Below are positions 15,961 to 32,229 of a stretch of 64,000 nt of DNA, in pieces. Position 1 is the stretch's first letter, and every line of letters begins with the position of its first letter. A model generated the notes under the pieces. The model was not told the origin of the DNA. It did no database searches and was given only the letters and a program-made list of their open reading frames with translations. This stretch comes from Thermoanaerobaculia bacterium (GTDB taxonomy: Bacteria > Acidobacteriota > Thermoanaerobaculia > Multivoradales > Multivoraceae): positions 3,680,001 through 3,744,000 of the forward strand of contig OY762911.1 of NCBI GenBank assembly GCA_963666565.1, written 5' to 3'. Made by a program: the position numbers and the translations under genes.

Positions 15961-17003
15961 CGAGCACGTAAGCTGGCTGGCCCACCAGCCACGTCGGCGA
16001 AGGAGGCGGTCCAGTGTCAACAAGCAGCAGCAATGCGACGGTCAGCCTGACGGACGGACCGATAGTCCTCGGGAACGGCATCGCCGGCGAGACGATCCCC
16101 ATCCCGACCGCCGATCCAACAGGCTTCCACCAGGCGATCTCCGAGCCGGACGCCATGCCGGCCACCGAGATCCTCGGCAGCCTGTTCGTGCCGCCCGGAG
16201 AGGGTCCGTGGCCCGTGGTGATCGTCGTGCCCGGGAGCCTGGGGGTCGCGCCGTCGCACGTCGCCAAGGCGGACCTGCTGACGGAGGCCGGCATCGCCTG
16301 TTGCGTGATCGACCCCTTCGGCACCCGCGGCGTGACCTCGACCGTCGCCAACCAGGCGCAGTACTCCTTCGCCGCCAGTGCCTGGGACGTGCTCGCAACC
16401 GCCACGGTGCTGGCCCGACGAGACGACATCGACGCCGCGCGCATCGGCGCCCAGGGTCACAGCCGCGGCGGGTCGGCCGTGCTGTCCGCCGCCTGCCTGG
16501 CGCCTCTGGTCGGCCCTGAACGGGCTCCCGACCTCGCCGCCGTGTACGCCGCGTACCCGTGGTCGGGCTTCCAGTTCCTGCGGCCGGACGTGGGGCGCAC
16601 CGTCGTGCGCTCCGTCATCGGCGACCTGGACGAGTGGTGCTTGCCGCTCCAGGTCCAGGCCCACATGCACGCGATGACCCTCTGCGGATGCGACGCCAGT
16701 TTCCGGCTCTTCCCCGACACGCACCACAGCTTCGACCGCGACACGCCGGTGGAACCGGTCCCCGACGCATCGACAAGTCCTGGGGCGCCGACGATCTACA
16801 TCCGCGAAGACGGCGCCCTCGTGCATCCGGTGACCGGCAAGGCCGACCCGGTCTTCACCGAGCGCGACGCGATGATCTACCAGGTCAAGTCGCCGTACGG
16901 CCGCAGAGGCGCCCGGATCGGCACCGCCGGCGACCAGGCGAGGGCGTTCCACGAGGACATGATGGCGTTCTGGACGGCCGCGCTCTCAGTCGCCCGCGTC
17001 TGA
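15961..17003 (+). repeat. Direct-repeat copy A (upstream region plus DLH-like gene); copy B at 23356-23747
   Basis: cgagcacgtaagctggctggccca vs cgagaacgtaagctggctggccca; gtgtcaacaagc in both; 16679-17003 closely matches 23423-23747. Confidence 0.9.
16014..17003 (+). CDS. Dienelactone hydrolase-like alpha/beta hydrolase
   Basis: Nucleophile GHSRGG, acid GDLDEW, His THHSFD; GTG start after AAGGAGG. Confidence 0.85.
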   Translation: MSTSSSNATVSLTDGPIVLGNGIAGETIPIPTADPTGFHQAISEPDAMPATEILGSLFVPPGEGPWPVVIVVPGSLGVAPSHVAKADLLTEAGIACCVIDPFGTRGVTSTVANQAQYSFAASAWDVLATATVLARRDDIDAARIGAQGHSRGGSAVLSAACLAPLVGPERAPDLAAVYAAYPWSGFQFLRPDVGRTVVRSVIGDLDEWCLPLQVQAHMHAMTLCGCDASFRLFPDTHHSFDRDTPVEPVPDASTSPGAPTIYIREDGALVHPVTGKADPVFTERDAMIYQVKSPYGRRGARIGTAGDQARAFHEDMMAFWTAALSVARV

Positions 17004-17128
17004 GAAGCCCGGCGCCCTCCATGTAGCGCCGGTTCGGGCCGTACCGGCGCCTCAGCCGATGTCGCGGGCGACAGGGACACGGCCAGCGGCTGGCGCTCCG
17101 TTTCCTGGCGCCGGTCGACAGTAGAGCG

Positions 17129-19153
17129 TCACGCGGGTACTTCCCGTAGTTGCTCGACGATCCGGAACCTCAGCTTCGCGCGAGGCTTCATGTTCGGGAT
17201 GGGGTTGAACTGAAGCCGGTAGTCCTTGGGAACGAGTTCGAATCTGAAGTGGCGGGCGATCATCAGGACGTTGATCGCCAGTTGCAGCTCTGTCTGTCGA
17301 AAACCGAGACACCTGTGCGTGCCCAGGCCGTAGGGCGCGTAGCCGGGAGTGCGGTGCTCCGCCCGATCCGGCAGGTAGCGGTCGATGTCGAAGGAGTGGG
17401 GGTCCGGGAAGACCTCCTCCATGTAGTGCGGCGCGGTCGAAGCGATGAAGAGCCTTGAACCGACCGGGATCTCGTGGTCCTCGATCACGCAGGCGTTCAT
17501 CACGTTCCGGATCGCCATGGGGACGACCGGGTACATCCGGAGGGTTTCCATGAGGAAACGGTGCGTGACGTCGATAGTGGAGGAGTTGATGGCCTGACCG
17601 TCCGGATCGCCGTTCTCGAAGAGTGCGTCGGCTTCGGCACGGATCTGCTCCCGCAGTTCCGGCTGCGTCGTCATGGCGTAGAGCGCGAAGCTGATTGCGT
17701 CGCCCACGTAGACGCTGGCAACCAGAGCCGCGGAGAGCTGGAAGCGCAGCGTGGTTTCCGGCACGAACTGCGGGTCGCTCGCGTGGAGCCCGAGCCAGTC
17801 GTCCGCCAGATCGCGCGGCTGGTCGATCCGCTGGGCCGGAGTGTGTGAGATCTGGATGCGTTCCAGGAGCCTGTCGACGGCCCTGGCCTTGCGCTTCATG
17901 CCGGGCGTGTTCATCATCATCTTCGGCAGGGCCCGCATGATGTGAACGGCCAGGGCGCGCTCCTTGTAGGCGACCAGTTCCCCGATGAGGTCCTGCGAGT
18001 CCACTCCGATGGTGAGTGGAGAGAGTTGCGCGTTGACCAGGAGACGGCAGGACCGGACCGGTATGACGTCGCCCACCTTCCAGTCCGCGAGGTACGTTCG
18101 AAGATATGCGTAGAGCCGATCGAGCTGTCCGGCGAGCCTGCCGCGTGAGTATCCGGGCGACATGGCCTTGCGGAGTCGAAAGTGATCGGCGCCGTCCAGG
18201 GAAGGCATGACGCCGGACGCGCCGTAGACCTTCTCGAAGTCGCTGAAGTAGTCCTTCGTTCTCAGGTGCGTGCGCCCGCGCTTGTTGACCCACTGATTTA
18301 CCTCGGTTCCCGCCAAGCAGATCATGCGCTCGCCGATGGGCGGGCGGAGCTCGAAGACGGGCCCGAACTCTTCGGCAAGACTGGCGAAGAGGGCCGGAAT
18401 GTTGCCGTCGCGGGCGTACTGGTTGCGCAGCAACTTCCGTAATGGAATGCCCGGCATCTTCTTCGTCAGGGCCGAGTGTCGGCGGATCGGCTCCGCGATG
18501 TTCTGGGCAACCGCTTCGGCGATCGAACGCCCGATCAGGTCCATCCTGCAGACCAGCGCGATCCGTTCCTCGACGTCTTCGTCGATCTGGAATATGAAGC
18601 GCAGAACGTCGCAGGCGTCGACGATGGAGAGAACGATGATGTCTCGCGGATCGGGGATTTCGTCGTTGAAGATGACGTCGGCGATCCGGTCCCGAATGAA
18701 CTGGGTCGCGGTGCCTTCTTCGGATTGGCCGTGCGCGTCCGCCTGCCAGCCGGTCCGCGGAAGGGTCCAGAAGTCGCCGTCGTGGTACTGGAGGACGTTC
18801 CGCTTCACGAGGCGGTCGAGGGTGAGGTCGATGACGGTCTCGGCCTGCGGCGCGAGACGTTCGATCCAGTAGCGGGCCGTCTGCTGGTTCGCCGCCTCGG
18901 CCAGTTCCCCGAGAATCGGATCGAGAGCCGGGTCTCCCGTTTCCGTCGCGTCGACGAGATAGAGAGCTTCCGGGTCCGTGTCGATGCGCGACTGAAGGGA
19001 GAGCTCGGCGAGAACCGCGCCGGCAACCGCGCAGTGCAGGTGCCAGCCGGGTACTTGATGGAACCAGCCGTTCTCCTCGTTGAGGAGCATCAGGATCAAC
19101 TCGTCCGTGAGAGTCAGCCCCTGGCTCGCGAGACCTGCGGAGGTGGGAGTCAT
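17129..19153 (-). CDS. GPP34/GOLPH3-like domain fused to cytochrome P450 (copy 1)
   Basis: N-terminus LTLTDELILMLLNEENG..AGAVLAELSLQSRID..TGDPALD..YWIERLA (GPP34-like); C-terminus ETLR (ExxR), FDIDRY, PYGLGTHRCLG (heme Cys). Confidence 0.88.
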   Translation of the reverse strand: MTPTSAGLASQGLTLTDELILMLLNEENGWFHQVPGWHLHCAVAGAVLAELSLQSRIDTDPEALYLVDATETGDPALDPILGELAEAANQQTARYWIERLAPQAETVIDLTLDRLVKRNVLQYHDGDFWTLPRTGWQADAHGQSEEGTATQFIRDRIADVIFNDEIPDPRDIIVLSIVDACDVLRFIFQIDEDVEERIALVCRMDLIGRSIAEAVAQNIAEPIRRHSALTKKMPGIPLRKLLRNQYARDGNIPALFASLAEEFGPVFELRPPIGERMICLAGTEVNQWVNKRGRTHLRTKDYFSDFEKVYGASGVMPSLDGADHFRLRKAMSPGYSRGRLAGQLDRLYAYLRTYLADWKVGDVIPVRSCRLLVNAQLSPLTIGVDSQDLIGELVAYKERALAVHIMRALPKMMMNTPGMKRKARAVDRLLERIQISHTPAQRIDQPRDLADDWLGLHASDPQFVPETTLRFQLSAALVASVYVGDAISFALYAMTTQPELREQIRAEADALFENGDPDGQAINSSTIDVTHRFLMETLRMYPVVPMAIRNVMNACVIEDHEIPVGSRLFIASTAPHYMEEVFPDPHSFDIDRYLPDRAEHRTPGYAPYGLGTHRCLGFRQTELQLAINVLMIARHFRFELVPKDYRLQFNPIPNMKPRAKLRFRIVEQLREVPA

Positions 19154-19179: not shown

Positions 19180-22100
19180 TTATGCGGCCTCAAGGGCAGG
19201 GCCGGGCGCCCGGCGCCGAGAGGTCAATCGCAGGTGAATCGTGTACAGAGCCGGTACGAGCAGCATCAGAAGAGAGGTCGTGATGGCGATGCCGCAGCCA
19301 AGCGAGGCGGCGAACGGGACGAGGAACTGTGCCTGGATCGACGGCTCGAGAATCAGGGGCGTGAAGCCGAGAAACGAGGTCAGGGACGTCAGCATGATGG
19401 GACGGAAGCGGCCCTTGGCACCTTCAACAATCGCGTCTCGCGCGGAGAATCCCTCCCGGAGTTCCTGATCGATGAAGTCGATCATCACGAGGGAGTCGTT
19501 CACGACGACCCCCGCGAGGCCGAAGAACGCCATGAAGGAGACCGCGCTCAAGGGGATCCCGAGGAACAGGTGACCCAGGATCACGCCGATGAACCCGAAC
19601 GGGATCACGGCCATGACGAGGAACGGCTTGGTGTAGGAGCGGAGGGGGATCGCCAGCAAGGCAAAGATCATGAGCAGGGCGATCGCAAACCCGCGATAGA
19701 GGGCGCCCAGGGAATCGAGCTGCTGCTGCTGCTCGCCCCCGAAGCTGTAGGTCAGGTTCGGATCGGCGCTCGTCAGTTCCTTGAGAATGACGTCCTCCAG
19801 AATGTCGTTCGCCTCCCCGCCTGAGATGACGGTTGGGTCCACATCCGCGGTAACCGTGACGACACGCTGGCCGTCCTTGCGTCTGGCGGCGGGCGGCGAC
19901 ATGCCTGAGCTCAGGGAAGCGACCCGACTCAGCGGTACTTCGGCCCCGCCGGGCGTGCGGAGGAGGTACCCCTCGACGTCGGTGACCGCGTTGCGATCGA
20001 CTTCGGGCAGACGCACATAGACCCGGACCTCTTCCCGGCCTCGCTGAACCCGCAACGCCTCTTCACCGAAGAACGCGGCTCGTGTCTGCGAAGCCAGATC
20101 GTCGAGGGTAAGACCGAGGGTTCGCGCTTCCGGCAGCAGCTCGAGCTGGAGTTCCGGGACGCCCGGTGTGTGATCCGAGCGGATGTCGAAGACCCCTCCC
20201 ACCGCACGGAGTTCATTGACGACGGAATCGGCGATCTCAGCCAGGCGCTCGGGATCGGGGTGGGACAGCACCGCCTCGACGGGGTTCCCCAGGTCGATGA
20301 TTTCGCCGCTGAAGGTGACGCCGCGAACGTAGGGCGGAACTCCCGCCTCTTCGCGCCATGCCTGAACGACATCTCCGCTGGTGATCTGCCGTTGCCGGGC
20401 ACCCAGCAGCTTGAAGTCGATCGTGGCGATGTTGGCTTCGGGATTCAGGGTCGGCTCCGGATTGAGTCCGCCGCCCTCGATTCGCGGCCGGTGTCCGACG
20501 GTTACGGTGACTCCGGAGAGCAGCGGAGGCGCATCGTCCGGTCGATCCCGGGAGAGTCGGTCGATCGCGCGGTGGCCGGCCGCCTCCAGTTCCCGGGCCA
20601 CCTCGTACGTCCGCTGCGCGGTCGTTCCGTCGGGCATCTCCAGGCTGGCGGTGGCGAAGTCGCCCTCGACGTTCTCCGCGAAGGTGGCAGGTACGATGCC
20701 GGCCGGTACCAGGGCAACGCAGATCACGAGCAGTCCGACGCCTCCCGCGATCGTCACCCCGGGGTAAGCCGTCGCGAAACGGAGGCCATGGTCCAGGGGC
20801 CCTTGCAGGAACCGGTTCAGCGCGCGATCCACGCCGCCCTGGATCCGTGCCGCGACCCGATCGACGGGGCCGGTCGGCTTCCACTCCGGACCGTGCAGGT
20901 GAGACAGGTGGCGGGGCAGCACCAGCGTCGATTCGACCAGGGAAAACAGCAGCATGGCGATCACGATGATCGGCAGCGCCCCCCAGACCTCGCCGATTCC
21001 ACCGGGGATGAAGAGCAGGGGGATGAACGCCACGACCGATGTGAGCACGGCGAAGGTCAACGGCACCAGGATGCGTCGCGTGCCGCGGATCGCAGCGGTG
21101 AGCCCCGGCGTGCCCCGCATGCGTTCGTAGTGGATGTACTCGGCGACGACGATCGCGTCGTCGACGACGATGCCGATGGCGAGGACGAAGGAGAACAGGG
21201 AGATGGCGTTGATCGCCAAGTCGAGCGCAAGCATGACGGCGAGTGCGCCGATGCCCGAAACGGCGAGGCCGACGGCGACCCAGAAGGCGATCCGGAGTTC
21301 GAGAAACAGACCGAGCGCGATGAGGACCAGCAAGAGACCCAGCGCGCCGTTCTTGAGGAGGATGCTCGCGCGCTCCGTGTAGGCATCGGACTCGTCATTC
21401 CAGACGGTCACTCCCAGGCCGTCCGGAAGCGAGGGAGTCAACTCGTTCTCCACGTACGCCAGGACGGCGTTGGCAACGCCCATCGCGTGCTCGTCTTCGG
21501 CTCTAAAGACCTCGATGAAGGCGGCGGGCTTGTCTTGGTGCCGGACGATCAGGTCGGCATTCTGAAAGCCGTCGTGGACCTCGGCGACATCCCCCAGGCG
21601 GACCGCCGTGCCGTCGCTCTTGCTGAGGAGGATGATGTCCTCGAAGTCCTGTTGCTCGTAGCGTTGGCCGAGAGTCCGTACCCGGACCTGCGATTCCCGT
21701 GTTTCGATGCTGCCCGCGGACAACTCCAGGGAACTGCGGCGAATCGGCGTGGCTACGTCACCGAGTGTGAGTCCGAGGGCTCTCAACCGCCGGAGTGGTA
21801 CTTCAACCGAGATTTCGTAGTTCCGCACGCCGCTGATGTCGACCTGGGAAACCCCGGGAAGCGAAGTGAGTTGATCCTCGATCTGGTAGGCGAGTTCCTT
21901 CAGGGATCGCTCGGAGACATCGCCGTAGAGGACGAGCCGGATCATGCTCTGGCGGTTCGTCATCTCCCGGAACAGGGGACGTTCGGCGCCGCCCGGGAAC
22001 GACTGGATGCGACCGACGGCGGACTCGATTTCGTCCTGCGCCTTGGCCATGTCCGTACCCGACTTCATCTCGACCCTGACGGATGCCATGCCGGGAGCCG

Positions 22101-22383
22101 CCACGGACTTGACCGCCTTCACGTCTTCCAGACCGCTGACCTCGTCCTCGATCTTGACGACGATGGACTCCTCCACCTCCTCCGGGGTCGCACCGGGGTA
22201 GGCCATCGTGACTTCGATGTGGTTAAAGGGGACGGTGGGCCACGCCTCCCGTTCGAGACCGGTCAGCGCCACGAGCCCCGCGGCGATGATGGCCCACATC
22301 AGCAGGTTGGCGGCAACACCGTTGCTCGCCATGTAGGTGATCGGTCCGGGCCGTTCGCCGTGGCTGCCGTCGTGGGAATTCAC
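19180..22383 (-). CDS. AcrB/AcrD/AcrF-family RND efflux permease (copy 1)
   Basis: YPGATPEEVEE, GIVVDDAIVV, GVVVNDSLV, RFRPIMLTS; 1067 aa. Confidence 0.95.
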   Translation of the reverse strand: MNSHDGSHGERPGPITYMASNGVAANLLMWAIIAAGLVALTGLEREAWPTVPFNHIEVTMAYPGATPEEVEESIVVKIEDEVSGLEDVKAVKSVAAPGMASVRVEMKSGTDMAKAQDEIESAVGRIQSFPGGAERPLFREMTNRQSMIRLVLYGDVSERSLKELAYQIEDQLTSLPGVSQVDISGVRNYEISVEVPLRRLRALGLTLGDVATPIRRSSLELSAGSIETRESQVRVRTLGQRYEQQDFEDIILLSKSDGTAVRLGDVAEVHDGFQNADLIVRHQDKPAAFIEVFRAEDEHAMGVANAVLAYVENELTPSLPDGLGVTVWNDESDAYTERASILLKNGALGLLLVLIALGLFLELRIAFWVAVGLAVSGIGALAVMLALDLAINAISLFSFVLAIGIVVDDAIVVAEYIHYERMRGTPGLTAAIRGTRRILVPLTFAVLTSVVAFIPLLFIPGGIGEVWGALPIIVIAMLLFSLVESTLVLPRHLSHLHGPEWKPTGPVDRVAARIQGGVDRALNRFLQGPLDHGLRFATAYPGVTIAGGVGLLVICVALVPAGIVPATFAENVEGDFATASLEMPDGTTAQRTYEVARELEAAGHRAIDRLSRDRPDDAPPLLSGVTVTVGHRPRIEGGGLNPEPTLNPEANIATIDFKLLGARQRQITSGDVVQAWREEAGVPPYVRGVTFSGEIIDLGNPVEAVLSHPDPERLAEIADSVVNELRAVGGVFDIRSDHTPGVPELQLELLPEARTLGLTLDDLASQTRAAFFGEEALRVQRGREEVRVYVRLPEVDRNAVTDVEGYLLRTPGGAEVPLSRVASLSSGMSPPAARRKDGQRVVTVTADVDPTVISGGEANDILEDVILKELTSADPNLTYSFGGEQQQQLDSLGALYRGFAIALLMIFALLAIPLRSYTKPFLVMAVIPFGFIGVILGHLFLGIPLSAVSFMAFFGLAGVVVNDSLVMIDFIDQELREGFSARDAIVEGAKGRFRPIMLTSLTSFLGFTPLILEPSIQAQFLVPFAASLGCGIAITTSLLMLLVPALYTIHLRLTSRRRAPGPALEAA

Positions 22384-23747: not shown

Positions 23748-23760
23748 CTCGACCTGGGCC

Positions 23761-24323: not shown

Positions 24324-24471
24324 CGCGGCACCGCCGCGGCAACACAGACGGCGGGGTGGAGATCCGGGATGGTCGCCCGGCGCAGTCGGCCCGCGACGAC
24401 CGCGTCCGCGCCGGCCGAGCCGGCGCCGTCGCGCTAGAATCGCCGAACCGTCTCCAGAATCTCCGGATACA

Positions 24472-27400
24472 GTGACTTCCAACGGCAGCAACCACGGCGA
24501 GCGGCCCGGGCCGATCGCTTACATGGCGAGCAACGGCGTCGCCGCCAACCTGTTGATGTGGGCGATCATCGCCGCGGGCGTCGTGTCGCTGACCGGCCTC
24601 CAGAGGGAAGCGTGGCCGGAGGTGCCGTTCTTCCAGATCGAGATCTCGATGGCCTACCCCGGCGCCACGCCGGAGGAGGTCGAGGAGTCGATCGTCGTCA
24701 AGATCGAGGACGAGGTCAGCGGCCTGGAGGACGTCAAGTCGGTCAAGTCGGTGGCGGCGCCGGGGATGGCTTCCGTCCGGGTCGAGGTGAAATCGGGCAC
24801 CGACATGGGGCGGGCGATGGACGAGATCGAGTCCGCCGTCGGCCGCATCCAGTCGTTCCCGGGCGAAGCCGAGCGCCCGCAGTTCCGGGAGATGACGAAC
24901 CTCCAGAGCATGATCCGGCTCATCGTCCACGGCGACGTCTCGGAGCGCTCGCTGAAGGAGCTGGCGCACCGGGTCGAGGACGAGCTCACGTCCCTCTCCG
25001 GCGTGTCCCAAGTCGAGATCAGCGGGGTGCGGAACTACGAGATCTCCATCGAGGTCCCGCTGCGGCAGCTTCGCGCCCTCGGACTCACCCTGGGCGACGT
25101 GGCGAGCGCGGTGCGCCGCAGTTCGCTGGACCTGTCCGCGGGCAGCATCGACACGCAGGAGTCGCAGGTGCGGGTTCGCACCCTCGGCCAGCGCTACGAC
25201 CAGCAGGAGTTCGAGGACATCATCGTCCTCAGCCGCGCCGACGGCACGGTGGTGCGGCTGGGCGACATCGCCGAGGTCCGCGACGACTTCCAGGACATCG
25301 ACCTGATCGTCCGCCACCAGAACCACCCCGCGGTCTTCGTCGAGATCTACCGCGCCGACGACGAGCAGGTCATGAGCGTCGCCAACGCCGTCCGCGAGCA
25401 CCTGGCGAACGAGATCGTCCCCTCCCTGCCCGACGGCGTCGGCGTCACCATCTGGAACGACGAGTCGCAGGTCTACGAGGAGCGCGCCGGCCTCCTCGTC
25501 AAGAACGGCCTTCTCGGGCTGCTGCTGGTGCTCATCGCTCTGGGCCTGTTCCTCGAGCTCCGGCTCGCGATCTGGGTCGCCGTCGGGCTCCTCATCGCGG
25601 GCATCGGCGCGCTGGCCGCGATGTTCATGCTGGACCTGGCAATCAACACGATCTCCCTGTTCTCCTTCGTCCTCGCCATCGGCATCGTCGTCGACGACGC
25701 GATCGTCGTCGCCGACAACATCCACGCGGAACGGAGACGAGGCACGCCGGGCGTCGCGGCCGCCATCCGCGGCACCCGGCGGATCGTGGTGCCGCTGACC
25801 TTCGCCGTCCTGACGTCCGTGGCGGCGTTCGTTCCCCTGCTCTTCATACCCGGCGGAATCGGCGAGATCTGGAGCGCCTTGCCGGTCATCCTCATCGCGA
25901 TGCTGCTGGTCTCGCTCGTCGAGTCGGTCTTCGTGCTGCCCAACCACCTGTCGCACCTGCGGGACCCGGCAAGCCCGCCGTCGAACGCCGTCGAGCGGTT
26001 CATCCGGCGGATTCAGGGCCGGGTGGATTTCGCGCTGAACCGGTTCGTGCAGGGCCCACTCGACAAGGGGCTCAAGTTCGCGACCGACCAGCCCGCCGTG
26101 ACGATGGCGGCGGCCGTCGGACTGCTCATCCTGAGTTTCTCCCTGGTGGCGGCGGGGATCGTTCCGACGACGTTCGCCGACACGATCGAGGGGGACTTCG
26201 CCACGGCCAGCCTCGAGATGCCGGACGGCACGACGGCCGAACGGACGTACGAAGTCGCGCGGGAACTGGAGGCGGCGGGCCACCGCGTGATCGAGCGGCT
26301 TTCGCGCGACCGGCCGCCGGACGCGCCGCCGCTGCTTTCGGGCGTCACCGTAACCGTCGGTCAGAGGCCGCGGGTCGAGGGCGGCGGCCTCAACCCGGAG
26401 CCCAGCCTGAACCCGGAGGCGAACGTCGCCACGATCGACTTCAAGCTGGTGGGCGCGCAGGAACGGGAGATCTCGAGCGGCGAGGTCGTGCAGGCGTGGC
26501 GCGAGGAGGTCGGCATGCTGCCCTACGTGCGCGGCATCACGTTCAGCGGCGAGGTGCTCGACCTCGGCAGCCCGGTCGCGGCGGTGCTCTCCCACCCGGA
26601 ACCGGACAAGCTCGTCGAGGCCGCCGAGACCGTGGTGAACGGCCTTCAGCGACTGGGCGGCGTGTTCGACATCCGATCGGACCACACGCCGGGCGTTCCC
26701 GAGATCCAGCTCGAACTCCGGCCCGAAGCGCGAACCCTCGGACTCACGCTCGACCAGTTGGCCGGACAGGCTCGCGACGCCTTCTTCGGTTCCGAGGCCC
26801 TGCGGGTGCAACGCGGCGGCGAGGAGGTTCGGGTCTACGTGCGGCTGCCCGCCGCGGAACGGAACGCCATCACGGACATCGAGGGGTACCTGCTCCGCAC
26901 GCCGAACGGGGCCGAGGTGCCGTTGTACCAGGTGGCCCGCCTGAACTCCGGCACCTCGCCGCCCGCCATCCGGCGCGAGGACGGTCAACGCGTCGTCACC
27001 GTCACTGCGGACGTGGACTCCACGGTGATCTCCGGCGGCGAGGCGAACGGAATCCTCGAAGACACGATTCTCGCCGAGCTCGTCGCCGCCGACCCCGAAC
27101 TGAGCTACAGCTTCGGGGGCGAACAGCAGCAGCAGATCGAGTCCCTGGACTCGCTGTACCGGGGGTTCGCGATCGCCCTCCTGCTGATCTTCGCGCTGCT
27201 GGCGATTCCGCTCCGTTCCTACACCAAGCCGTTCATCATCATGGCCGTCATCCCGTTCGGCTTCATCGGCGTGATCCTGGGCCACCTCATCCTGGGCATC
27301 GAGATGAGCGCGGTCTCCTTCATGGGGATCTTCGGCCTGAGCGGCGTCGTCGTGAACGACTCGCTCGTCATGATCGACCTTATCGACCGGAAGCTCAAGG

Positions 27401-27696
27401 AGGGCGCCCCCGCGCGGACCGCGATCGTCGAAGGCGCCAAGGGCCGGTTCCGCCCCATCATGCTGACCTCCGTGACCACCTTCCTCGGCTTCACGCCGCT
27501 CATCCTCGAGCCGGCTATCCAGGCCCAGTTCCTGGTGCCGTTCGCGGCGTCGCTGGGCTGCGGCATCGTCATCACGACGGCGATCCTGATGTTCGTCGTC
27601 CCGGCGCTGTCGTCCCTCCATCTGCACGTGACCGGCGGCCACCGCAGCGCCGCCGCAGCGCCGCCCGCCGAGGCGGCTACACAGCCCGCCGGCTAG
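24472..27696 (+). CDS. AcrB/AcrD/AcrF-family RND efflux permease (copy 2)
   Basis: GTG 24472; colinear paralog of 19180-22383 with the same motifs; its TAG shares CTAG (27693-27696) with the convergent gene. Confidence 0.95.
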   Translation: MTSNGSNHGERPGPIAYMASNGVAANLLMWAIIAAGVVSLTGLQREAWPEVPFFQIEISMAYPGATPEEVEESIVVKIEDEVSGLEDVKSVKSVAAPGMASVRVEVKSGTDMGRAMDEIESAVGRIQSFPGEAERPQFREMTNLQSMIRLIVHGDVSERSLKELAHRVEDELTSLSGVSQVEISGVRNYEISIEVPLRQLRALGLTLGDVASAVRRSSLDLSAGSIDTQESQVRVRTLGQRYDQQEFEDIIVLSRADGTVVRLGDIAEVRDDFQDIDLIVRHQNHPAVFVEIYRADDEQVMSVANAVREHLANEIVPSLPDGVGVTIWNDESQVYEERAGLLVKNGLLGLLLVLIALGLFLELRLAIWVAVGLLIAGIGALAAMFMLDLAINTISLFSFVLAIGIVVDDAIVVADNIHAERRRGTPGVAAAIRGTRRIVVPLTFAVLTSVAAFVPLLFIPGGIGEIWSALPVILIAMLLVSLVESVFVLPNHLSHLRDPASPPSNAVERFIRRIQGRVDFALNRFVQGPLDKGLKFATDQPAVTMAAAVGLLILSFSLVAAGIVPTTFADTIEGDFATASLEMPDGTTAERTYEVARELEAAGHRVIERLSRDRPPDAPPLLSGVTVTVGQRPRVEGGGLNPEPSLNPEANVATIDFKLVGAQEREISSGEVVQAWREEVGMLPYVRGITFSGEVLDLGSPVAAVLSHPEPDKLVEAAETVVNGLQRLGGVFDIRSDHTPGVPEIQLELRPEARTLGLTLDQLAGQARDAFFGSEALRVQRGGEEVRVYVRLPAAERNAITDIEGYLLRTPNGAEVPLYQVARLNSGTSPPAIRREDGQRVVTVTADVDSTVISGGEANGILEDTILAELVAADPELSYSFGGEQQQQIESLDSLYRGFAIALLLIFALLAIPLRSYTKPFIIMAVIPFGFIGVILGHLILGIEMSAVSFMGIFGLSGVVVNDSLVMIDLIDRKLKEGAPARTAIVEGAKGRFRPIMLTSVTTFLGFTPLILEPAIQAQFLVPFAASLGCGIVITTAILMFVVPALSSLHLHVTGGHRSAAAAPPAEAATQPAG

Positions 27697-29090
27697 CGCC
27701 TGGCCTTTCTCAACCTCCAGCCGTACATGATGCCGCCGTAGTGGTTGAAGGACGCCCGCGCCTCCGGGTCGTCGAAGGGGTAGTCCGCCCCGATCTGCCT
27801 GGCCGCGGCAAGGCCGGTGACGAAGCAGGTCTCCTGGCTGTTGATCAGCGTGTGGGCGCCGCAGTGCCAGGCGCCCTTCCTGCCCTGGATGAAGCGGAAC
27901 AGAGGCACGAGCAGCGCGACGTGGCGCACGTCGTGGACGACGTGCTGGAACCACCACCTCTTGACGATCTTGTTCTCGTCGATCCGGCTGACCGGGTTGT
28001 ACGTCACCAGGCAGGGCTTGTCGGACCCGTGGGCCCACGGCTGCTGGTTGTGCATGATGTACGTGATCTCGTAGTTGTCCGGCCGTGACCCGTACTGCTC
28101 GATGTGGTTGCTCCGGGTCTCCAGCGCCTTCACGTCGCTCTCGGGGAGCACCGACGCATCCGAGTGGACGATCGCGTGGTTGTGGAGCTCGCTCTCGTAG
28201 CGGATCGACGAGAGGATCCAGCGCTCGAGGAGCGACGGCTGGTCGAGGATCATCAGCGTCTGGTTCGCGTTGCAGGCGAAGATCACCTGGTCGAACGTCT
28301 CCTCTACCCCCTCCTCGTCCTTCACCACGACGCCGGAGGAGCGGCGATACACCTTCCGGACCGGCCGTTCGAGGTAGATCTTGTCCCGGAAGCCAGCCGA
28401 CAGGTTCTCGTAAATCCGGCGGGTTCCTCGGTCCCACGTCTGCATCGGCGTGGCGCGCTCGATGTCGAAGAACTCGAGGTACCTCGAGAAGAGCGACGCC
28501 GGCATGTCGAACACGTTCGTCGCCATCAGGAAGTTGACGAACATCGGCTTCAGGACCTTGTACCTGAAGTCGCCGGACAGGCCGTGCCAGTTGAGCAGCG
28601 TCCCCATGCTGACGTAGTTGTAGGGGTTGAGCGCGTTCAGGAGCTTCGACCGGGAACGGGTCAGCCGGCCGAACCGGTGAAGGCGCTTCAGGAGGCGCTG
28701 GAACTTCTCGATCTCGGCCTCAAGGTCCTCCCGGATGTCCGAGTCGAAGTCGTGGGCGTAGACTTGACCACGGTACTTGACGCTGTAGCTGAACCTGGTG
28801 TCGAGCAGCTCGATGCCGAACTCCTCCAGCAGCAGCAGGATGTGCCGGTACACCGACGGGATGCAGGCGGTGACGGAGATGTCGAACGGGATCGAACTGC
28901 CGTCTTCCTGCGGCATGTCGGCGGTGACCGCGTTGCCGCCGAGCTGAGCCTGGGCTTCGTACAGCCGGACGTCGAAGCGGTCCGGATGGCGGTGGAGCGC
29001 CCAAGCGGCGGCAAGGCCCGAGATGCCGCCGCCGACGATGGCGATCCGGCGCGGAGTCCGGCCCTCTCCATCTCCAGCAGCCCGTGACAT
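27693..29090 (-). CDS. FAD-dependent oxidoreductase (amine-oxidase/COG2907-like)
   Basis: IAIVGGGISGLAAA (Rossmann), YEAQAQLGG, IQGRKGAWHCGA..QETCFVTG. Confidence 0.85.
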   Translation of the reverse strand: MSRAAGDGEGRTPRRIAIVGGGISGLAAAWALHRHPDRFDVRLYEAQAQLGGNAVTADMPQEDGSSIPFDISVTACIPSVYRHILLLLEEFGIELLDTRFSYSVKYRGQVYAHDFDSDIREDLEAEIEKFQRLLKRLHRFGRLTRSRSKLLNALNPYNYVSMGTLLNWHGLSGDFRYKVLKPMFVNFLMATNVFDMPASLFSRYLEFFDIERATPMQTWDRGTRRIYENLSAGFRDKIYLERPVRKVYRRSSGVVVKDEEGVEETFDQVIFACNANQTLMILDQPSLLERWILSSIRYESELHNHAIVHSDASVLPESDVKALETRSNHIEQYGSRPDNYEITYIMHNQQPWAHGSDKPCLVTYNPVSRIDENKIVKRWWFQHVVHDVRHVALLVPLFRFIQGRKGAWHCGAHTLINSQETCFVTGLAAARQIGADYPFDDPEARASFNHYGGIMYGWRLRKARR

Positions 29091-29114: not shown

Positions 29115-31118
29115 CTAGGCGGCGGATCCGAGAGGATGCCGGTGCCCGGTGACCCGGAACTTGAACTTCTTGTTGACGCTGTTCTTGGGGAAGGGACTCA
29201 GCTTCAATCGGTAGTCGCGCGGCACCATCTCCAGTTCCAGGTGGCGGGCGAGCATGAGCACGTTCATGACCATCTGCAGACGGGTCCAGTTCGCCCCGCC
29301 GCATACGTGCGTGCCGACGCCGAACGGCATGTAGATGCCCGCGCCCTTGTGTTCGTTGCGCGGTTCCACGTAGCGGTCGATATCGAACTCCTGCGGTTCC
29401 GGGAAGTACCTCTCCATGTGGTGGGGCGCTGAGAAGGAGAGCATCACGGTGCTGCCGGCGGGTACCTCGATGCCCCCGATCTCGAAGGAGTTCATGGCGG
29501 TCCGCAGGTGTACTGGAACGACCTCGTGGAGCCGCAGCACTTCCATGACGAAACGGCGCGACGCATCGGTCGCGTCCGGCGTCAGGTCGGCCGCGGTCGG
29601 GTCTCCGCCCGCGAACAGCGCGTCCGCTTCGGCCACGATCCGCTCGTGGCAGCCGGGGTTCGCCAGCATCTCGTAGATGGAGAAGGCCACCGCGCTGCCC
29701 GTGTAGTGACCGGCGATGATCGGGGCGATCAACGCGAAGCCCAGGTCGGTTTCGGGCAGATACTGCGGATCCGCCTGGTGCAGCTCCAGCAGATCGTCGA
29801 CCAGGTCCCGGCGCCTTCCCGCGCGCTGCGCCTCGCTGTGGCTTGCGTGGATCAGGCCGTAGAGATCCAGCACGCGCTTCTTGCGGCGCTTCATCGCCGG
29901 AGTGCGCAGCGTGAACCTGGGCATCAGGCCCACCGTATGGACCATGAGCGCCCGGTACTCGAAGAGCAGCAGATCGTCGAGCAGCTCCTGAGAGGGATCG
30001 AAGCTCACGCTCAGCCTGGCGATCTGCGCTCCGACCAGCCGCTGGCAGGTCATCTCGACGGGAAGCGCCTTGCCCACTTCCCACTCCCTGAAGGAGGCCC
30101 GGCAAAGCTCCACGAGTTCTCCCAGCCGGTCTTCGACGACCTTGCGGGAGTTGCCGGCGCGAACCGCCCGGCGCATGCGAAAGTGGTCCGCCCCGTCCAT
30201 GCTGGCGATGGACCGCGCGGTCCCCCACTCCTGCTGGAAGTCCTCCAGGTAGTCGCGTGTCCGGAGGTGGAGGCGGCCCTTCTTCGCTACCCACCGGTTC
30301 ACCTCGACCCCGGCGAGCACGATGAGCCGCCTGCCCGGCAGCTTCCACTCGAAGACCGGTCCGACCTCCTCGGCCGTCTCCGCGAAGAACCTGGGCAGGT
30401 TCGCGGCACGGAAGGCCTTCGAGGCGAGAGAGTCCCTGAGCCCCACCGTCGGCATGGGCCGACGGCGGGCCGAGCGCATGCTGGCCGGCGGACGATAGGA
30501 ACTGCGCACTGCGGGACCGATCGCCCTGCCGATCAGATCCATGTTGCTGTAGAGCTCGATGAGCTCCTCGGCGGCCTCGTACTCCTCCGGCTCCATCATG
30601 GCCTTGAAGCCGTCGCAGTAGTGGACGAGGCCGATGATCACGATGTCCCTGGGGTCGGGGAACTCGTTGTCCAGGAGGATGCGGAAGATGCGGCCCTTGA
30701 TCTCCTCGCCCGCCCAGCCGTCCACCAGGGGATAGCGGCCGGTACGGGTCACCTTCTTCGAGAGGGACCAGAAACCGCCGGCATCGGACTCGAAGATGCC
30801 CTTCTCGACCAGCCTCTCGATCGCGTCGTCGCTGATCTGGTCGGCGCGCTGGGCGAGCCGCTCCACCCAGTACTGCGGCGGATGCACCTCTTCCTCGCTC
30901 GCAAGGTCCTCCAGCGAAGGATCGAGCAGGCCGTCGCCCGTAGGCGTCGTATCGACGACGGTCAGCGTCTCCAGGTCCGAGTCGATCCGGTCCTCCATGG
31001 CGAGGTCCATGAGCACGGCCCCCGCCAGGGCGCACGACATCCGCCACTCGGGAATCGGCACGAAGTACCCGGTGTCCTGGCTGTGGAGCAACAGAAGAAG
31101 CTGTTCGGCGAATCTCAT
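29115..31118 (-). CDS. GPP34/GOLPH3-like domain fused to cytochrome P450 (copy 2)
   Basis: MRFAEQLLLLL..AGAVLMDLAMEDRID..TGDGLLD..YWVERLA; EVLR, FDIDRY, PFGVGTHVCGG. Confidence 0.88.
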   Translation of the reverse strand: MRFAEQLLLLLHSQDTGYFVPIPEWRMSCALAGAVLMDLAMEDRIDSDLETLTVVDTTPTGDGLLDPSLEDLASEEEVHPPQYWVERLAQRADQISDDAIERLVEKGIFESDAGGFWSLSKKVTRTGRYPLVDGWAGEEIKGRIFRILLDNEFPDPRDIVIIGLVHYCDGFKAMMEPEEYEAAEELIELYSNMDLIGRAIGPAVRSSYRPPASMRSARRRPMPTVGLRDSLASKAFRAANLPRFFAETAEEVGPVFEWKLPGRRLIVLAGVEVNRWVAKKGRLHLRTRDYLEDFQQEWGTARSIASMDGADHFRMRRAVRAGNSRKVVEDRLGELVELCRASFREWEVGKALPVEMTCQRLVGAQIARLSVSFDPSQELLDDLLLFEYRALMVHTVGLMPRFTLRTPAMKRRKKRVLDLYGLIHASHSEAQRAGRRRDLVDDLLELHQADPQYLPETDLGFALIAPIIAGHYTGSAVAFSIYEMLANPGCHERIVAEADALFAGGDPTAADLTPDATDASRRFVMEVLRLHEVVPVHLRTAMNSFEIGGIEVPAGSTVMLSFSAPHHMERYFPEPQEFDIDRYVEPRNEHKGAGIYMPFGVGTHVCGGANWTRLQMVMNVLMLARHLELEMVPRDYRLKLSPFPKNSVNKKFKFRVTGHRHPLGSAA

Positions 31119-31161
31119 CTCGACGCTTGTCCGGTGCGGCGCCCGGCAGAATCTCCTTGCC

Positions 31162-32229
31162 TCAGATGGCCCGCAACTTCGGCCGGCGCTCCGCCTCGAG
31201 TTCCGGATAGAACTGACGGCAATACTGGCGGTACTTCCCGATGGGGCCGTCGGCGCGGCACAGGCGTGGCGGAGACTTGTACCGCTTCCGCTCCCAGATG
31301 ACGATGTCCTCCTTCACGTAGCGCTTCTCCTGCCAGTTCGCGAACCAGTTCAGCAGCGGATGGCGCGCGCCCGTGGGCAGGAAGCGCAGCCCGGCGACGA
31401 AGTGCTTCGGCTTGCCGAGCCTGCGCACCTGGCTGACCAGCCTCATCTCGCAGAGCGTCCCGTCGACCGGCGTGGCCAGGACCCACAGCCTTGAGTCCAT
31501 CCCGATCGTCTTGTCGTGGAACTCGACCAAGGAGTACCCCAGCCCGTGGATGTGGGTGTCGGCCGAGACGCGGTTGACCAGGTATGTCAGCCCCATGACC
31601 TTCTGCACGGCCGTGAAGTCGAAGCGGCTCCTGAGGTACGCCCCGTCGACCGAGACGGAGCCGACCGGCCGCACGTCGTCGTAGCCGTGCGTGTAGCCCA
31701 GGTGTTCCACGTCCACGGAGTTCTCCGTCGTCTCCTGCGGATGGCCCCGGAACCGCAGGGTGCAGGACCGCAACTCGCTCCACTCGGCGCCGGCGGGCGG
31801 TTCGTCCGGCAGATGCCACTGCGACGAGCGACCGCCGGCGCCCCACCAGGCGAAGATCATGCCGAGGATCTCCGTCGTCTCGTAGGTCTGGAGCCTCGCG
31901 CCGCTGGGCGGCGGCGCATGCGGGGTCGCCACGCACCGGCCGGTCGCGTCGAACTCGAAGCCGTGGAACGGGCAGACCAGACAGCCGTCGCGGACCTTGC
32001 CGCCAACCGTGGGCCCCAGGTGAGAGCCCAGATGTGGACACGCCGCGTCGGAGACGCAGATGCGGCCCTCGTCGTCGCACCAGACGACGATCTCCTCGCC
32101 CAGCCACGTCCTCTCGATCAGCTTCTTCCGCAGAATCGCGTCGCGGCTCGCCACGAAGTACCAGCCCTCGGGGAAAGGCGGCAGTTCATCGTCTGGACTC
32201 AACGTAGGTCGATCCGGCTTCGAGATCAT
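31162..32229 (-). CDS. Rieske non-heme iron oxygenase/desaturase (Neverland/KshA-like)
   Basis: FPEGWY, CPHLG..CPFHG Rieske ligands, ENSVDVEHLGYTH and EDIVIW mononuclear-iron motifs; start ATG 32229. Confidence 0.88.
   Translation of the reverse strand: MISKPDRPTLSPDDELPPFPEGWYFVASRDAILRKKLIERTWLGEEIVVWCDDEGRICVSDAACPHLGSHLGPTVGGKVRDGCLVCPFHGFEFDATGRCVATPHAPPPSGARLQTYETTEILGMIFAWWGAGGRSSQWHLPDEPPAGAEWSELRSCTLRFRGHPQETTENSVDVEHLGYTHGYDDVRPVGSVSVDGAYLRSRFDFTAVQKVMGLTYLVNRVSADTHIHGLGYSLVEFHDKTIGMDSRLWVLATPVDGTLCEMRLVSQVRRLGKPKHFVAGLRFLPTGARHPLLNWFANWQEKRYVKEDIVIWERKRYKSPPRLCRADGPIGKYRQYCRQFYPELEAERRPKLRAI

Follow-up and report, generated by a model that had tools for sequence, protein, structure and literature searches.

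A Candidate Sterol Tailoring and Efflux Module Built around GPP34–P450 Fusions in Sponge-Associated Bacteria

Introduction

What does a bacterium do with cytochrome P450s fused to a GPP34 domain when their genes stand beside those for a Rieske oxygenase, a flavin oxidase, and RND pumps? The question is raised by a 64,000-nucleotide stretch of the genome of a Thermoanaerobaculia bacterium (contig OY762911.1, positions 3,680,001 to 3,744,000), hereafter the window. A first-pass annotation, made from the letters alone, had proposed a lipid or sterol tailoring and export module for which no pathway was described. Novelty in that sense is not supported. The fusion was described in 2025 under the name GPP34_L (GPP34 plus cytochrome P450) and is said to occur in sponge symbionts only (Ferreira et al., Microbiome 2025, PMC11706023), and steroid gene clusters with SMTs were reported from sponge symbionts in 2022–2023 (Kelly 2022, PMC9531527; Brown 2023, PMC10070321). 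The two fusions of the window, GP1 and GP2, belong to the same family as GPP34_L, and the phyla of their homologs match those of Ferreira et al.

These authors treated the protein alone and proposed that it is a secreted PI4P-binding effector. In the main text of their paper the analysis of flanking genes is confined to Actinobacteriota and their short GPP34 forms, and no mention is made of linkage to Rieske, RND, FAD oxidase, SMT, or sterol-cluster genes; Fig. S11 or Data Set S1 may show such neighbors. Likewise, the portions of text available for Kelly 2022 and Brown 2023 do not name GPP34, a P450 fusion, a KshA-type Rieske protein, or RND (figures and supplements may show them unlabelled or as "sdmA homologs"). 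The words "P450" and "Rieske" occur zero times in the available text of Brown 2023, whose Fig. 3 or Supplementary Data 1 may show neighbors. We found no paper that joins GPP34 to sterols.

Results

Organization of the Locus

As the first-pass annotation had stated, the window contains two full GPP34–P450 genes. Both GP1 (17129–19153, minus strand, 674 amino acids) and GP2 (29115–31118, minus strand, 667 amino acids) exceed the Pfam cutoffs for GPP34 (29.1 bits) and p450 (22.8 bits), with scores of 102.3 and 113.8 bits for GP1 and 111.7 and 121.1 bits for GP2. They are 42% identical over 659 residues and represent two clades, GP1-type and GP2-type. GP2 is the middle gene of a minus-strand operon, which opens with a KshA-type Rieske non-heme iron oxygenase (31162–32229; 355 amino acids from the ATG at 32229; Pfam Rieske 63.7 bits, KshA_C 70.5 bits) and closes with an LkcE-like FAD-dependent enzyme of the amine-oxidase fold (27693–29090, minus strand; Amino_oxidase 75.2 bits, NAD_binding_8 49.4 bits), the gaps being 43 and 24 nt. 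The Rieske gene could alternatively start farther upstream, with the GTG at 32262. The oxidase end of the operon converges on the gene for an AcrB-type RND permease, RND2 (24472–27696, plus strand; ACR_tran 548.5 bits), with an overlap of 4 nt. The gene for a paralogous permease, RND1 (19180–22383, minus strand, 1,067 amino acids; ACR_tran 528.9 bits), is co-oriented with GP1, 26 nt separating the end of one from the start of the other. Operon, convergence, and co-orientation are thus as first described.

RND1 and RND2 are 78% identical over 1,059 residues, counted from 24472 onward; RND2 lies in a longer open reading frame (23722–27696), the approximately 250 N-terminal codons of which are without homology, similarity to RND1 beginning at 24472. 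The two permeases bear out part of an earlier claim that a paralogous RND gene accompanies each of three fusions, but there is no third RND gene and no third fusion. A tblastn search of the window with GP1 and GP2 (E ≤ 1e-3) returned only these two genes, and a relaxed search added only a stub of 47 nt. What had been taken for a third, relic copy is a 21-codon N-terminal piece of GPP34 just upstream of RND1 (about 22398–22460, minus strand), identified by blastn and by local protein alignment to GP1. In blastn it is 85% identical over 47 nt to GP1 (19058–19104) and 90% identical to locus L057, and it aligns with GP1 residues 12–33 with a score of 69.

The interval originally assigned to the module, which starts at 16014, begins with a gene outside the claimed parts list, namely that for an alpha/beta hydrolase of the dienelactone hydrolase/S9-like type (16014–17003, plus strand; Peptidase_S9 27.1 bits, DLH 25.5 bits). 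A duplicated fragment of this gene, consisting of a short 5' piece and the 3' end, is recognizable at 23356–23747 (plus strand) from its nucleotide identity to the 15961–17003 region: 23422–23747 is 89% identical to 16678–17003, and 23356–23422 is 85% identical to 15961–16025. By gene-order comparison, the fragment sits where relatives have the full hydrolase gene beside the RND gene, and it marks a rearrangement junction. Contigs with zero differences span 22285–23480, and with it the stub and the beginnings of both RND1 and the hydrolase fragment, in four of four runs; contig depth was 600–2100 over the FAD-oxidase gene vs about 55–70 in its flanks. Copies of the hydrolase that are 87–93% identical stand beside the RND gene in L001–L005, L008, L025, L054, L056, and L057, and since this adjacency is confined to the acidobacterial clade to which the window belongs, the link between hydrolase and module may be due to descent alone. 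Directly upstream of the Rieske gene, and on the same strand, is a sulfatase gene (32350–33774, minus strand; Sulfatase 190.3 bits). Its copies (87–93% identical) occur only in L002, L006–L009, L025, L054, and L057; conserved in the acidobacterial clade only, it is of uncertain membership in the module. The open reading frame at 13683–15935 had no Pfam or NCBIfam match.

Linkage across Genomes

We surveyed 74 related loci that contain a fusion homolog and that represent at least five phyla. The first-pass annotation had named in advance the linkage of such homologs to Rieske, RND, or FAD-oxidoreductase genes as a point on which its proposal turned, and this linkage is what the survey revealed. 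Of the 74 loci, 52 contain the Rieske gene, which in 40 is no more than 300 nt away from the fusion, and an RND gene orthologous to RND1 (64–96% identical) is present in 59, within 300 nt in 30. FAD-oxidase copies (76–91% identical) are found in 25 loci, 22 of them no more than 300 nt from the fusion gene. In the sequence available, the Rieske gene is absent from 22 loci and the RND gene from 15, some of the contigs being short; where the 10-kb flanks are complete (53 loci), one or the other gene occurs in 50 and both occur in 35. An SMT gene lies inside the locus in only 20 of the 74. The grouping is not due to chance, for other genomes show it again at these 74 loci.

The fusion itself appears to have moved between lineages. 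All of the best 120 GP2 homologs carry both PF05719 and PF00067, GP2 identity between phyla is 62–72%, and the fusion tree requires nine phylum changes when the minimum possible is three; this cross-phylum identity and the excess of phylum changes indicate horizontal spread. GP1 is 94–96% identical to its counterparts at L057 and L009, and the seven entries of the GP1-type clade come from Acidobacteriota, Gemmatimonadota, a Binatia genome, and Pseudomonadota.

Sterol Genes around the Module

In other phyla the module lies inside or beside genes for sterol synthesis. An example is the Binatia genome G010, in which the gene order is OMF–MFP–RND, DUF7802, FA_hydroxylase, KshA_C Rieske, GPP34–P450, ERG4/ERG24, CYP51, a squalene epoxidase–oxidosqualene cyclase fusion, one unannotated gene, SMT, SMT, an SdmA homolog, an SdmB homolog, FAD oxidase, GPP34–P450, and a Rieske fragment. 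Two Rieske/GPP34–P450 pairs and the RND operon hence flank the sterol cluster. The CYP51 of G010 matches solved CYP51s over its full length (E 2e-104), the SdmA homolog, a Rieske+VanA_C protein, scores 411 bits over its full length with the SdmA model NF052579, and the SdmB homolog scores 303 bits. The ERG24–CYP51–cyclase core and the SMTs of the sponge-symbiont clusters, as described in the available parts of Kelly 2022 and Brown 2023, are direct neighbors of the module in G010, and those clusters and the module occur in the same phyla, both with signs of horizontal transfer.

A second line of evidence is the co-occurrence of the module with SMT. Of the genomes behind the 74 loci, our searches for cyclase and SMT covered the 49 that hold L001–L050. 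The Sterol_MT_C domain was found in 39 of the 49 fusion-bearing genomes and in none of 14 control genomes. It was found in two of 151 sampled Acidobacteriota (G000 and G135), both of which have the long GPP34 fusion form, and in G135 the SMT gene is 3 kb from the long GPP34 gene. This association is confounded by habitat, sterol genes being enriched among sponge symbionts in general (PMC9531527), and genomes that are related do not count as independent samples.

The genome of the window, a single closed contig that is 97% complete, presents a different picture. It has no match to SQHop_cyclase_N or SQHop_cyclase_C, and tblastn searches of it with the squalene-hopene cyclase of a relative and with the Binatia epoxidase–cyclase returned nothing. 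It does have an SMT gene, directly followed by a second KshA_C Rieske gene, and an ERG4/ERG24 reductase gene 74.5% identical to that of the Binatia cluster. Of the ten nearest relatives examined, two have a whole oxidosqualene cyclase, three have an interrupted one, and in five none was found, but all ten retain the module and SMT. A closed genome without a cyclase yet with SMT, the ERG4/24 reductase, and the module is an unusually clean case, and it points to sterol exchange between host and symbiont. Thus, the earlier idea of sterol tailoring and export, possibly acting on host lipids, is backed by the sterol-cluster context, by SMT co-occurrence, and by the cyclase-less genome.

Were the sterol genes no more than frequent neighbors in sponge symbionts, the substrate could be another membrane lipid, such as a fatty acyl chain, a hopanoid, a carotenoid, or some other terpenoid. 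The fold of the P450 is nearest to CYP102s of the fatty-acid hydroxylase type, the flavin enzyme has an amine-oxidase/desaturase fold, many carriers have a squalene-hopene cyclase, and a second locus in the window's genome combines a 53%-identical RND gene with two P450 genes and a squalene/phytoene synthase gene. Yet the hopanoid cyclase, too, is missing from this genome, SMT tracks the long form in Acidobacteriota (both positives among the 151 are carriers), and in G010 it is sterol core genes that two fusion/Rieske pairs bracket. We hold a non-sterol substrate to be quite unlikely.

The Rieske Oxygenase and the Flavin Oxidase

The nearest solved structure to the Rieske protein is KshA (4qdc, E 2.4e-19, the alignment being limited to residues 30–192), with which it shares the two-domain Rieske plus KshA_C architecture of the KshA/KshB 3-ketosteroid 9-alpha-hydroxylase. 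Homologs are typically 355 amino acids long. In an alignment of 35 sequences C75, H77, C97, and H100, at the positions of both Cys-His motifs of the Rieske cluster, are invariant, as are D184, H187, H192, and D319, the putative iron ligands of the fold. Protein Atlas look-alikes comprise generic Rieske/KshA_C clusters only; the rank-26 cluster, a language-model match, is auto-named "cholesterol 7-desaturase family." The label "Neverland-like" of the first-pass annotation is not supported, KshA being the nearest relative of solved structure. Identity with SdmA was ruled out, as the window protein scores 36.1 bits with NF052579 (cutoff 600); the second Rieske protein of the genome scores 49.7 bits and the KshA_C Rieske protein of G010 57.1 bits.

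The resemblance to KshA raises the alternative that the Rieske enzyme and the P450 take the first steps in degrading or inactivating steroids of the host and that the pump removes toxic intermediates. Any sterol that the window's organism meets is foreign, because its genome lacks sterol synthesis, and the removal of amphiphiles is common for RND pumps. Arguing for a biosynthetic rather than a catabolic context, however, the neighbors in other phyla are cyclase, CYP51, ERG24, SdmA/B, and SMT; no KshB-type reductase is adjacent, and neither a KshB reductase nor any other catabolic gene is among the annotated conserved neighbors of the module. We consider catabolism unlikely. A detoxifying variant, in which steroids are oxidized and then pumped out, fits these data as well as sterol tailoring and export does. 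No ferredoxin or reductase partner is among the annotated conserved neighbors either.

The flavin oxidase aligns over its full length with LkcE (6f7l, E 1.5e-33, residues 14–448 with 12–433), its nearest relative of solved structure, a match that does not imply a substrate. The link to COG2907 flavoproteins of fatty-acid-modification loci that the first-pass annotation had drawn is not supported.

GPP34 has been reported in two genomes fused to a Rieske domain in place of the P450 (Ferreira et al., PMC11706023), which hints, in the manner of a "Rosetta stone," at an association of GPP34 with the Rieske enzyme. No such fusion was present among the best 120 of 1,989 Rieske homologs, all of which are 324–407 amino acids long.

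The GPP34–P450 Fusions

The P450 part of the fusions has an invariant heme-ligand cysteine motif and I-helix (alignments A1 and A4); across 41 sequences, C606 and the surrounding G600, H604, and G608 show little or no variation. The N-terminus leaves no room for a signal peptide, since the Pfam match to GPP34 already begins at residue 4 and the first helix of the AlphaFold2 model of GP2 (mean pLDDT 87.9, pTM 0.78) at residue 3. With the heme cysteine motif and the Rieske and putative iron-ligand residues invariant, and with no space for such a peptide, the GP2 P450 and the Rieske enzymes look active and cytoplasmic. A predicted complex of GP2 (1–660) with the Rieske protein (28–366; alignments A4 and A3) gave an ipSAE of 0.00 in both runs, which is evidence neither way.

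That the fusion P450 is the CYP51 of the cluster was ruled out, a true CYP51 standing beside the fusion in G010. Only residues 403–637 (the C-terminal 235) align with CYP51 (E 2e-25), so it is not a full-length ortholog, and a Foldseek search with the full GP2 model retrieved generic P450 folds only, CYP102-type folds being the top matches. As far as sequence can tell, neither the P450 nor the Rieske protein is orthologous to a characterized sterol enzyme.

The GPP34 part belongs to the same Pfam family as GOLPH3 and Vps74 (PF05719) and matches the GOLPH3 profile at the level of the fold (3kn1, E 2.5e-14), but here the domain is joined to an enzyme, in a bacterium. In GOLPH3 the PI4P pocket consists of W81, R90, R171, and R174 (PMC2806290). 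In a profile alignment of moderate posterior confidence, rather than a structural superposition, the R90 position is Ala in 12 of 13 sequences, the R171 position is Asp or Glu in 12 of 13, and the R174 position is non-basic in 13 of 13; about ten residues are deleted before the R171 position. The invariant W25 may correspond to W81, with an offset of three residues. With the three basic pocket residues apparently not conserved, a role of the domain as a PI4P reader is not supported, and neither is the membrane targeting through PI4P that had been suggested.

These observations bear on the effector proposed by Ferreira et al. (2025), in which GPP34, released into the sponge cell, would bind PI4P on the phagosome and block its maturation, the P450 being accessory. 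The long form is reported from no other bacteria than sponge symbionts, forms a single clade, and has transcripts in metatranscriptomes of sponges (PMC11706023); its GPP34 fold is common to GOLPH3 and Vps74; and ankyrin-repeat genes are in the vicinity (37896–39953). Even so, a signal peptide has no room at the N-terminus, three basic residues of the PI4P pocket are replaced in the profile alignment, and a heme enzyme requires bacterial redox partners. Nor would an effector be expected in a tight operon with a Rieske gene and an efflux pump or embedded in sterol clusters. The terms "sterol," "efflux," "RND," and "signal peptide" are absent from the main text of PMC11706023, which hence does not weigh these points. 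We judge the effector very unlikely.

RND Pumps

The solved structures nearest to RND1 are HAE1 pumps (E 4e-75), and its score with the NCBIfam model RND_permease_2 is 411 bits (cutoff 1,250). Homology to BstA, the transporter of Methylococcus capsulatus, was ruled out at the family level: the Pfam match is to ACR_tran, and the HpnN and HAE3 models give 17 and 34 bits. MFP and OMF genes adjoin the RND gene in 38 and 34 of the 74 loci, respectively. None is beside RND1 or RND2 in the window, and the closest copies in the genome, 58% and 50% identical to those of the cluster, are 1.9 Mb distant.

Discussion

On balance, we think it somewhat probable that the gene set is a horizontally spread accessory module for sterol tailoring and efflux in sponge-associated bacteria. 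The module most likely modifies and exports sterols, a role that we propose because related genomes carry the gene set inside sterol-synthesis clusters. In the window's organism the sterols are probably derived from the host, since the genome has no gene for forming the sterol ring. In the following scheme we infer that the substrate is a sterol, which way it is transported, and what GPP34 does. Two cytoplasmic oxygenases would oxidize a sterol held in, or drawn from, the inner membrane. One is the P450, in which the GPP34 domain takes the usual place of an N-terminal anchor, and the other is the KshA-type Rieske oxygenase; in some lineages the LkcE-like flavin oxidase would be added. The AcrB-type pump, which most lineages combine with MFP and OMF into a tripartite system, would take the sterol or its product out of the inner membrane and pass it to the outer membrane or out of the cell. 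GPP34 would serve for docking to membranes or lipids, or else as a partner of the oxygenase, but not for reading PI4P. Where a lineage has an oxidosqualene cyclase, the module would prolong the cell's own sterol pathway; the window's organism, being without a cyclase, would have to apply it to sterols from the host or from neighbors.

Neverland/DAF-36 and the Halloween P450s/DAF-9 of animals act in series, as Rieske enzyme and P450s, on an externally obtained sterol. The module may resemble these routes in setting a Rieske enzyme and a P450 on an external sterol. A bacterial likeness is the sdmA–sdmB–bstA–bstB–bstC operon of M. capsulatus, in which, according to the available part of the paper (PMC10942540), a Rieske sterol-modifying oxygenase stands beside a sterol-binding RND-superfamily transporter that is proposed to carry sterols towards the outer membrane. 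Common to both is a Rieske oxygenase adjoining an RND-superfamily pump. BstA, however, falls into the MMPL/HpnN branch, unlike the present pumps, which are of the ACR_tran (AcrB) type with MFP and OMF partners; SdmA differs from the Rieske protein of the window, a separate SdmA homolog being present in the Binatia cluster; and no counterpart of BstB or BstC was seen in the module.

A bolder version of our proposal, which we regard as doubtful, is that cyclase-less symbionts take up host sterols, remodel them with the GPP34-docked P450, the Rieske enzyme, the flavin oxidase, and SMT, and re-export the products. If this is true, bacteria would make part of the unusual "sponge" sterols, or a steroid that signals to the host, by means of a horizontally shared module, which would be a bacterial counterpart of the Rieske plus P450 steroid-hormone routes of animals, and the GOLPH3 fold would have a new bacterial use as an enzyme-docking domain. 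More generally, sterol tailoring and efflux would give a testable biochemical role, opposed to the published effector idea, to a family that has until now been no more than a marker of sponge symbiosis, and bacterial sterol metabolism would gain at least three uncharacterized enzyme types and an AcrB-type pump. It would also bear on the question of whose enzymes produce or modify sponge sterols, which, as the available part of PMC10070321 has it, underlie the debate on the 24-isopropylcholestane biomarker.

Organization of the Gene Cluster

The first-pass annotation had claimed two full genes for fusions of a GPP34 domain to a P450, and Pfam confirmed both: GP1 (17129-19153, minus strand) and GP2 (29115-31118, minus strand), which are 42% identical. 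Pfam likewise identified two AcrB-type RND permeases, RND1 (19180-22383, minus strand) and RND2 (24472-27696, plus strand), which are 78% identical; a Rieske oxygenase with a KshA_C domain (31162-32229/32262, minus strand); an amine-oxidase-fold flavoenzyme, the FAD oxidase (27693-29090, minus strand); and an alpha/beta hydrolase (16014-17003, plus strand), the first ORF of the annotated interval. The annotated spacing holds as well: the Rieske gene, GP2, and the FAD oxidase gene form an operon that converges on RND2, and the end of RND1 lies 26 nt from GP1. As for a reported third relic, a GPP34 remnant does exist immediately upstream of RND1, but it is merely an N-terminal stub of 21 codons (approximately 22398-22460, minus strand); beside it lies a second, partial copy of the hydrolase gene (23356-23747). 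The ORF containing RND2 extends about 250 codons upstream of the start of homology, and this extension (23722-24471) is arginine-rich and had no Pfam match, so that automatic annotation could over-extend the gene. Upstream of the cluster are an ankyrin-repeat gene (37896-39953, minus strand) and an ORF with no Pfam match (36737-38119, minus strand), both 78-93% identical in acidobacterial relatives.

The gene order in relatives is Rieske-GP2-FAD oxidase followed either by RND-hydrolase or by GP1-RND1-hydrolase. Because relatives show these two orders, the window looks like a composite of both in which the RND1-GP1 pair is inverted. The region 22285-23480 was bridged by difference-free contigs in four of four metagenomic runs, all from one study, so that independent short-read contigs from this study contain the junction. 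Over the FAD oxidase gene (27675-29008), contig depth summed to 600-2100, as compared with about 55-70 in the flanks, an excess of 10- to 40-fold in all four runs; many co-occurring members of the community therefore carry a copy that is at least 90% identical. A separate 2.5-kb insertion (13515-16013), also spanned by difference-free contigs in four runs, separates the hydrolase gene from a CoA-transferase gene to which it is adjacent in a relative (locus L005). It contains an ORF of 750 codons (13683-15935, plus strand) with lower third-position GC and with no match in Pfam or NCBIfam.

Conserved Linkage across Phyla

The genome to which the window belongs (G000) is closed, 4.79 Mb in size, and 97% complete. 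Judged by GP2, its closest relatives (84-86% identical) are Candidatus Multivorans and Thermoanaerobaculia and Acidobacteriota metagenome-assembled genomes (MAGs). Both domains were present in all 120 of the best GP2 homologs, and we collected 74 loci from Acidobacteriota, Binatia, Gemmatimonadota, Latescibacterota, and many Gammaproteobacteria, in which fusions of the GP2 type are 62-86% identical. A quick FastTree analysis of 41 fusions resolved two paralogous clades, GP1-type and GP2-type, each of which extends across several phyla. Because the phylum labels on this tree require nine changes as against a minimum of three, the distribution fits horizontal spread.

All ORFs of the 74 loci and of the window, called by us with guidance from codon-position GC, were clustered, and recurrent clusters were annotated. 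Rieske genes were found in 52 of the 74 loci (40 within 300 nt of the fusion), RND genes in 59 (30 within 300 nt), and FAD oxidase genes in 25 (22 within 300 nt). Also recurrent were genes for HlyD-type membrane fusion proteins (MFP; 38/74), for OEP-type outer membrane factors (OMF; 34/74), and for proteins with a sterol methyltransferase C-terminal domain (20/74, in up to three tandem copies). Phylum groups in these counts were taken from record titles, and two "Versatilivorator" loci that were thereby set apart are Acidobacteriota in the tree data. Full flanks were available for 53 loci, of which 50 had a Rieske or an RND gene and 35 had both. The remaining three had neither by our clustering criteria, one of them being the Binatia locus L010, which has a Rieske fragment and an RND operon about 25 kb away. 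The RND orthologs are 64-77% identical across phyla and therefore represent one specific pump family rather than any RND protein. Thus, the linkage proposed in the first-pass annotation is borne out, because Rieske, RND, and FAD oxidase genes recur beside the fusion.

Association with Sterol Genes

The most extensive arrangement was seen in a Binatia genome (G010), in which we extended locus L010 with L082. The genes for an OMF, an MFP, and an RND protein are followed by DUF7802, FA_hydroxylase, a KshA_C Rieske gene, and a GP1-type fusion; then by ERG4/ERG24, CYP51, a squalene epoxidase-oxidosqualene cyclase fusion, one unknown gene, and two sterol methyltransferase (SMT) genes; and finally by a Rieske+VanA_C gene, an SDR gene, an FAD oxidase gene, a GP2-type fusion, and a Rieske fragment. 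The Rieske+VanA_C product gives a full-length match to the SdmA model (411 bits), and the SDR matches SdmB (303 bits). The KshA-type Rieske protein was also considered as SdmA and was rejected, with scores of only 36-57 bits. The squalene epoxidase and both cyclase domains lie in a single ORF that runs off the end of the locus (L010 18696-21995, minus strand), and copies of this epoxidase-cyclase, 90% and 100% identical, are found in L058 and L010.

The ERG24-CYP51-cyclase core appears in the text of Kelly et al. (2022; PMC9531527) as a "cluster of steroid genes," and Brown et al. (2023; PMC10070321) showed that SMTs of this kind alkylate the side chains of sterols. The P450 encoded within the core, which aligns with solved CYP51s along their full length (E = 2e-104), is a true CYP51. 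Since this separate CYP51 is present, the fusion P450 is an additional enzyme of the sterol cluster and not its 14-demethylase. Steroid catabolism would be in keeping with a KshA-type oxygenase, but with such a core as neighbor we regard it as improbable.

The association with SMT genes extends beyond individual loci. Loci L001-L050 belong to 49 genomes, of which 39 have the Sterol_MT_C domain, as does the window's genome; of 151 evenly sampled Acidobacteriota, just two have it (G000 and G135). GPP34 was found in 23 of the 151, mostly as short ORFs; long ORFs were limited to G000, G135, G157, G195, and perhaps G094. Both SMT-positive Acidobacteriota have a long form, which in G135 lies 3 kb from the SMT gene. 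Neither domain was found in any of 14 control genomes. The association as a whole carries the reservations that related genomes are not independent samples and that habitat is a confounder.

Genomic context, conservation, and the residues at key positions are shown here, and they best support a module for the tailoring and efflux of sterols. Our favored reading, held with some reserve, is that sterols are the substrates of the module and are passed on to its pump; we infer the substrate, chemistry, and direction of transport. The data fit a detoxifying and a remodeling role alike.

Features of the Proteins

Both the I-helix and the heme cysteine motif are retained in the fusion P450. Sequence comparison places its C-terminal half nearest to CYP51 (E = 2e-25), and the modeled fold is nearest to CYP102-type P450s (TM approximately 0.78 on the target). 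The AlphaFold2 model of GP2 has a mean pLDDT of 87.9, with a low-confidence linker at residues 211-217, and its high pTM (0.78) suggests that the GPP34 and P450 domains may be held in a fixed arrangement. In microsomal P450s, a membrane anchor occupies the position that GPP34 takes in the fusion. An alignment revealed a conserved basic, proline-containing stretch after the GPP34 domain.

The same fusion has been named "GPP34_L" by Ferreira et al. (2025; PMC11706023), in whose text 656 of 663 long forms are GPP34+P450, the long form is monophyletic, restricted to sponge symbionts, and expressed in a sponge metatranscriptome, and a GPP34-Rieske domain fusion is noted in two genomes. They propose a secreted effector that binds PI4P and blocks phagosome maturation. 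Confinement to symbionts would suit such an effector, but we consider it very unlikely. Because GPP34 starts at the very N-terminus (the Pfam match at residue 4, the first model helix at residue 3), neither a signal peptide nor a membrane anchor would have space ahead of it. Moreover, the PI4P pocket of GOLPH3 consists of W81, R90, R171, and R174 (Wood et al. 2009; PMC2806290), and we mapped it by aligning a 13-domain GPP34 profile with full-length GOLPH3, an alignment that reproduces its numbering. The R90 position is Ala in 12 of the 13 domains; the R171 position is Asp or Glu in 12 and Lys in the short GPP34 of the window's genome; the R174 position is non-basic in all 13; and about ten residues are deleted directly ahead of the R171 position.

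The main text of Ferreira et al., in which flanking genes are analyzed for short forms in Actinobacteriota only, contains none of the terms "RND," "sterol," "steroid," "efflux," "methyltransferase," and "signal peptide." Likewise, "P450," "Rieske," and "RND" do not occur in Brown et al. (2023; PMC10070321) or in a 2025 SMT preprint. The fusion (2025) and the sterol clusters and SMTs of sponge symbionts (2022-2023) are thus already known; in the running text of open-access papers and bioRxiv preprints, we found no paper joining GPP34-P450 to sterol clusters or SMTs.

As to the other components, the Rieske protein retains its cluster and iron ligands in 35 of 35 sequences, and the FAD oxidase aligns with LkcE along its whole length and is unusually conserved (76-91% across phyla). 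RND1 and RND2 are AcrB-like, with scores under the NCBIfam cut-offs. No MFP or OMF gene adjoins either of them within the window; the genome's closest copies of the ones beside the module in other phyla, 58% and 50% identical to those of the cluster, respectively, both lie in a second locus for lipid oxidation and efflux (G000:C1:1816136-1832848; L083 2136-18848). Its order is OMF, HupE/UreJ, two MpaB/Lcp-type oxygenases, MFP, sulfotransferase, P450, a third RND paralog (53% identical to RND1), P450, and squalene/phytoene synthase. A non-sterol lipid as the substrate of the module might suit company of this kind, but set beside the recurrent SMT genes it seems to us slightly less probable even than catabolism.

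Probable Loss of Ring Synthesis and Retention of Tailoring Genes

In the window's genome neither cyclase domain was found, and tblastn searches with the squalene-hopene cyclase of a relative (G002) and with the Binatia epoxidase-cyclase returned no match. As predicted from its sequence, this genome cannot make the sterol ring system. The G002 cyclase carries a DxDDTA motif, which we take to be the hopene-cyclase signature, and tblastn with the five-gene block around it (L080, G002:C1:210000-228000) also matched nothing in the window's genome. The two conserved genes flanking this block are 86-90% identical there and lie about 17 kb apart (about 2430384-2447536), with the short GPP34 gene (at 2458463) about 10 kb from them. 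Orthologs of CYP51, SdmB, FA_hydroxylase, and DUF7802 were likewise not found. Retained are an ERG4/ERG24 reductase, 74.5% identical to its counterpart in the Binatia cluster, and an SMT gene followed directly by a second KshA_C Rieske gene (G000:C1:1483032-1485377; L076 8733-11078), whose product is 45% identical to the Rieske protein beside the GP1-type fusion of G010 and 29% identical to that of the window.

Orthologs of the oxidosqualene cyclase, 69-100% identical to the Binatia cyclase, were present in 29 of 50 genomes searched. In the ten nearest relatives examined, the gene was whole in two (G005 and G007), interrupted in three (G003, G008, and G024), and not found in five, although most related genomes are MAGs, in which absences are weak evidence, the closed genome of the window being the exception. 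The interrupted genes have an in-frame stop or are in two pieces, which could be gene decay or assembly error. The module and SMT were kept in all ten. Because the cyclase is missing or interrupted while the module and SMT persist, we infer that ring synthesis has been lost and tailoring retained, and that these bacteria would rely on foreign sterols.
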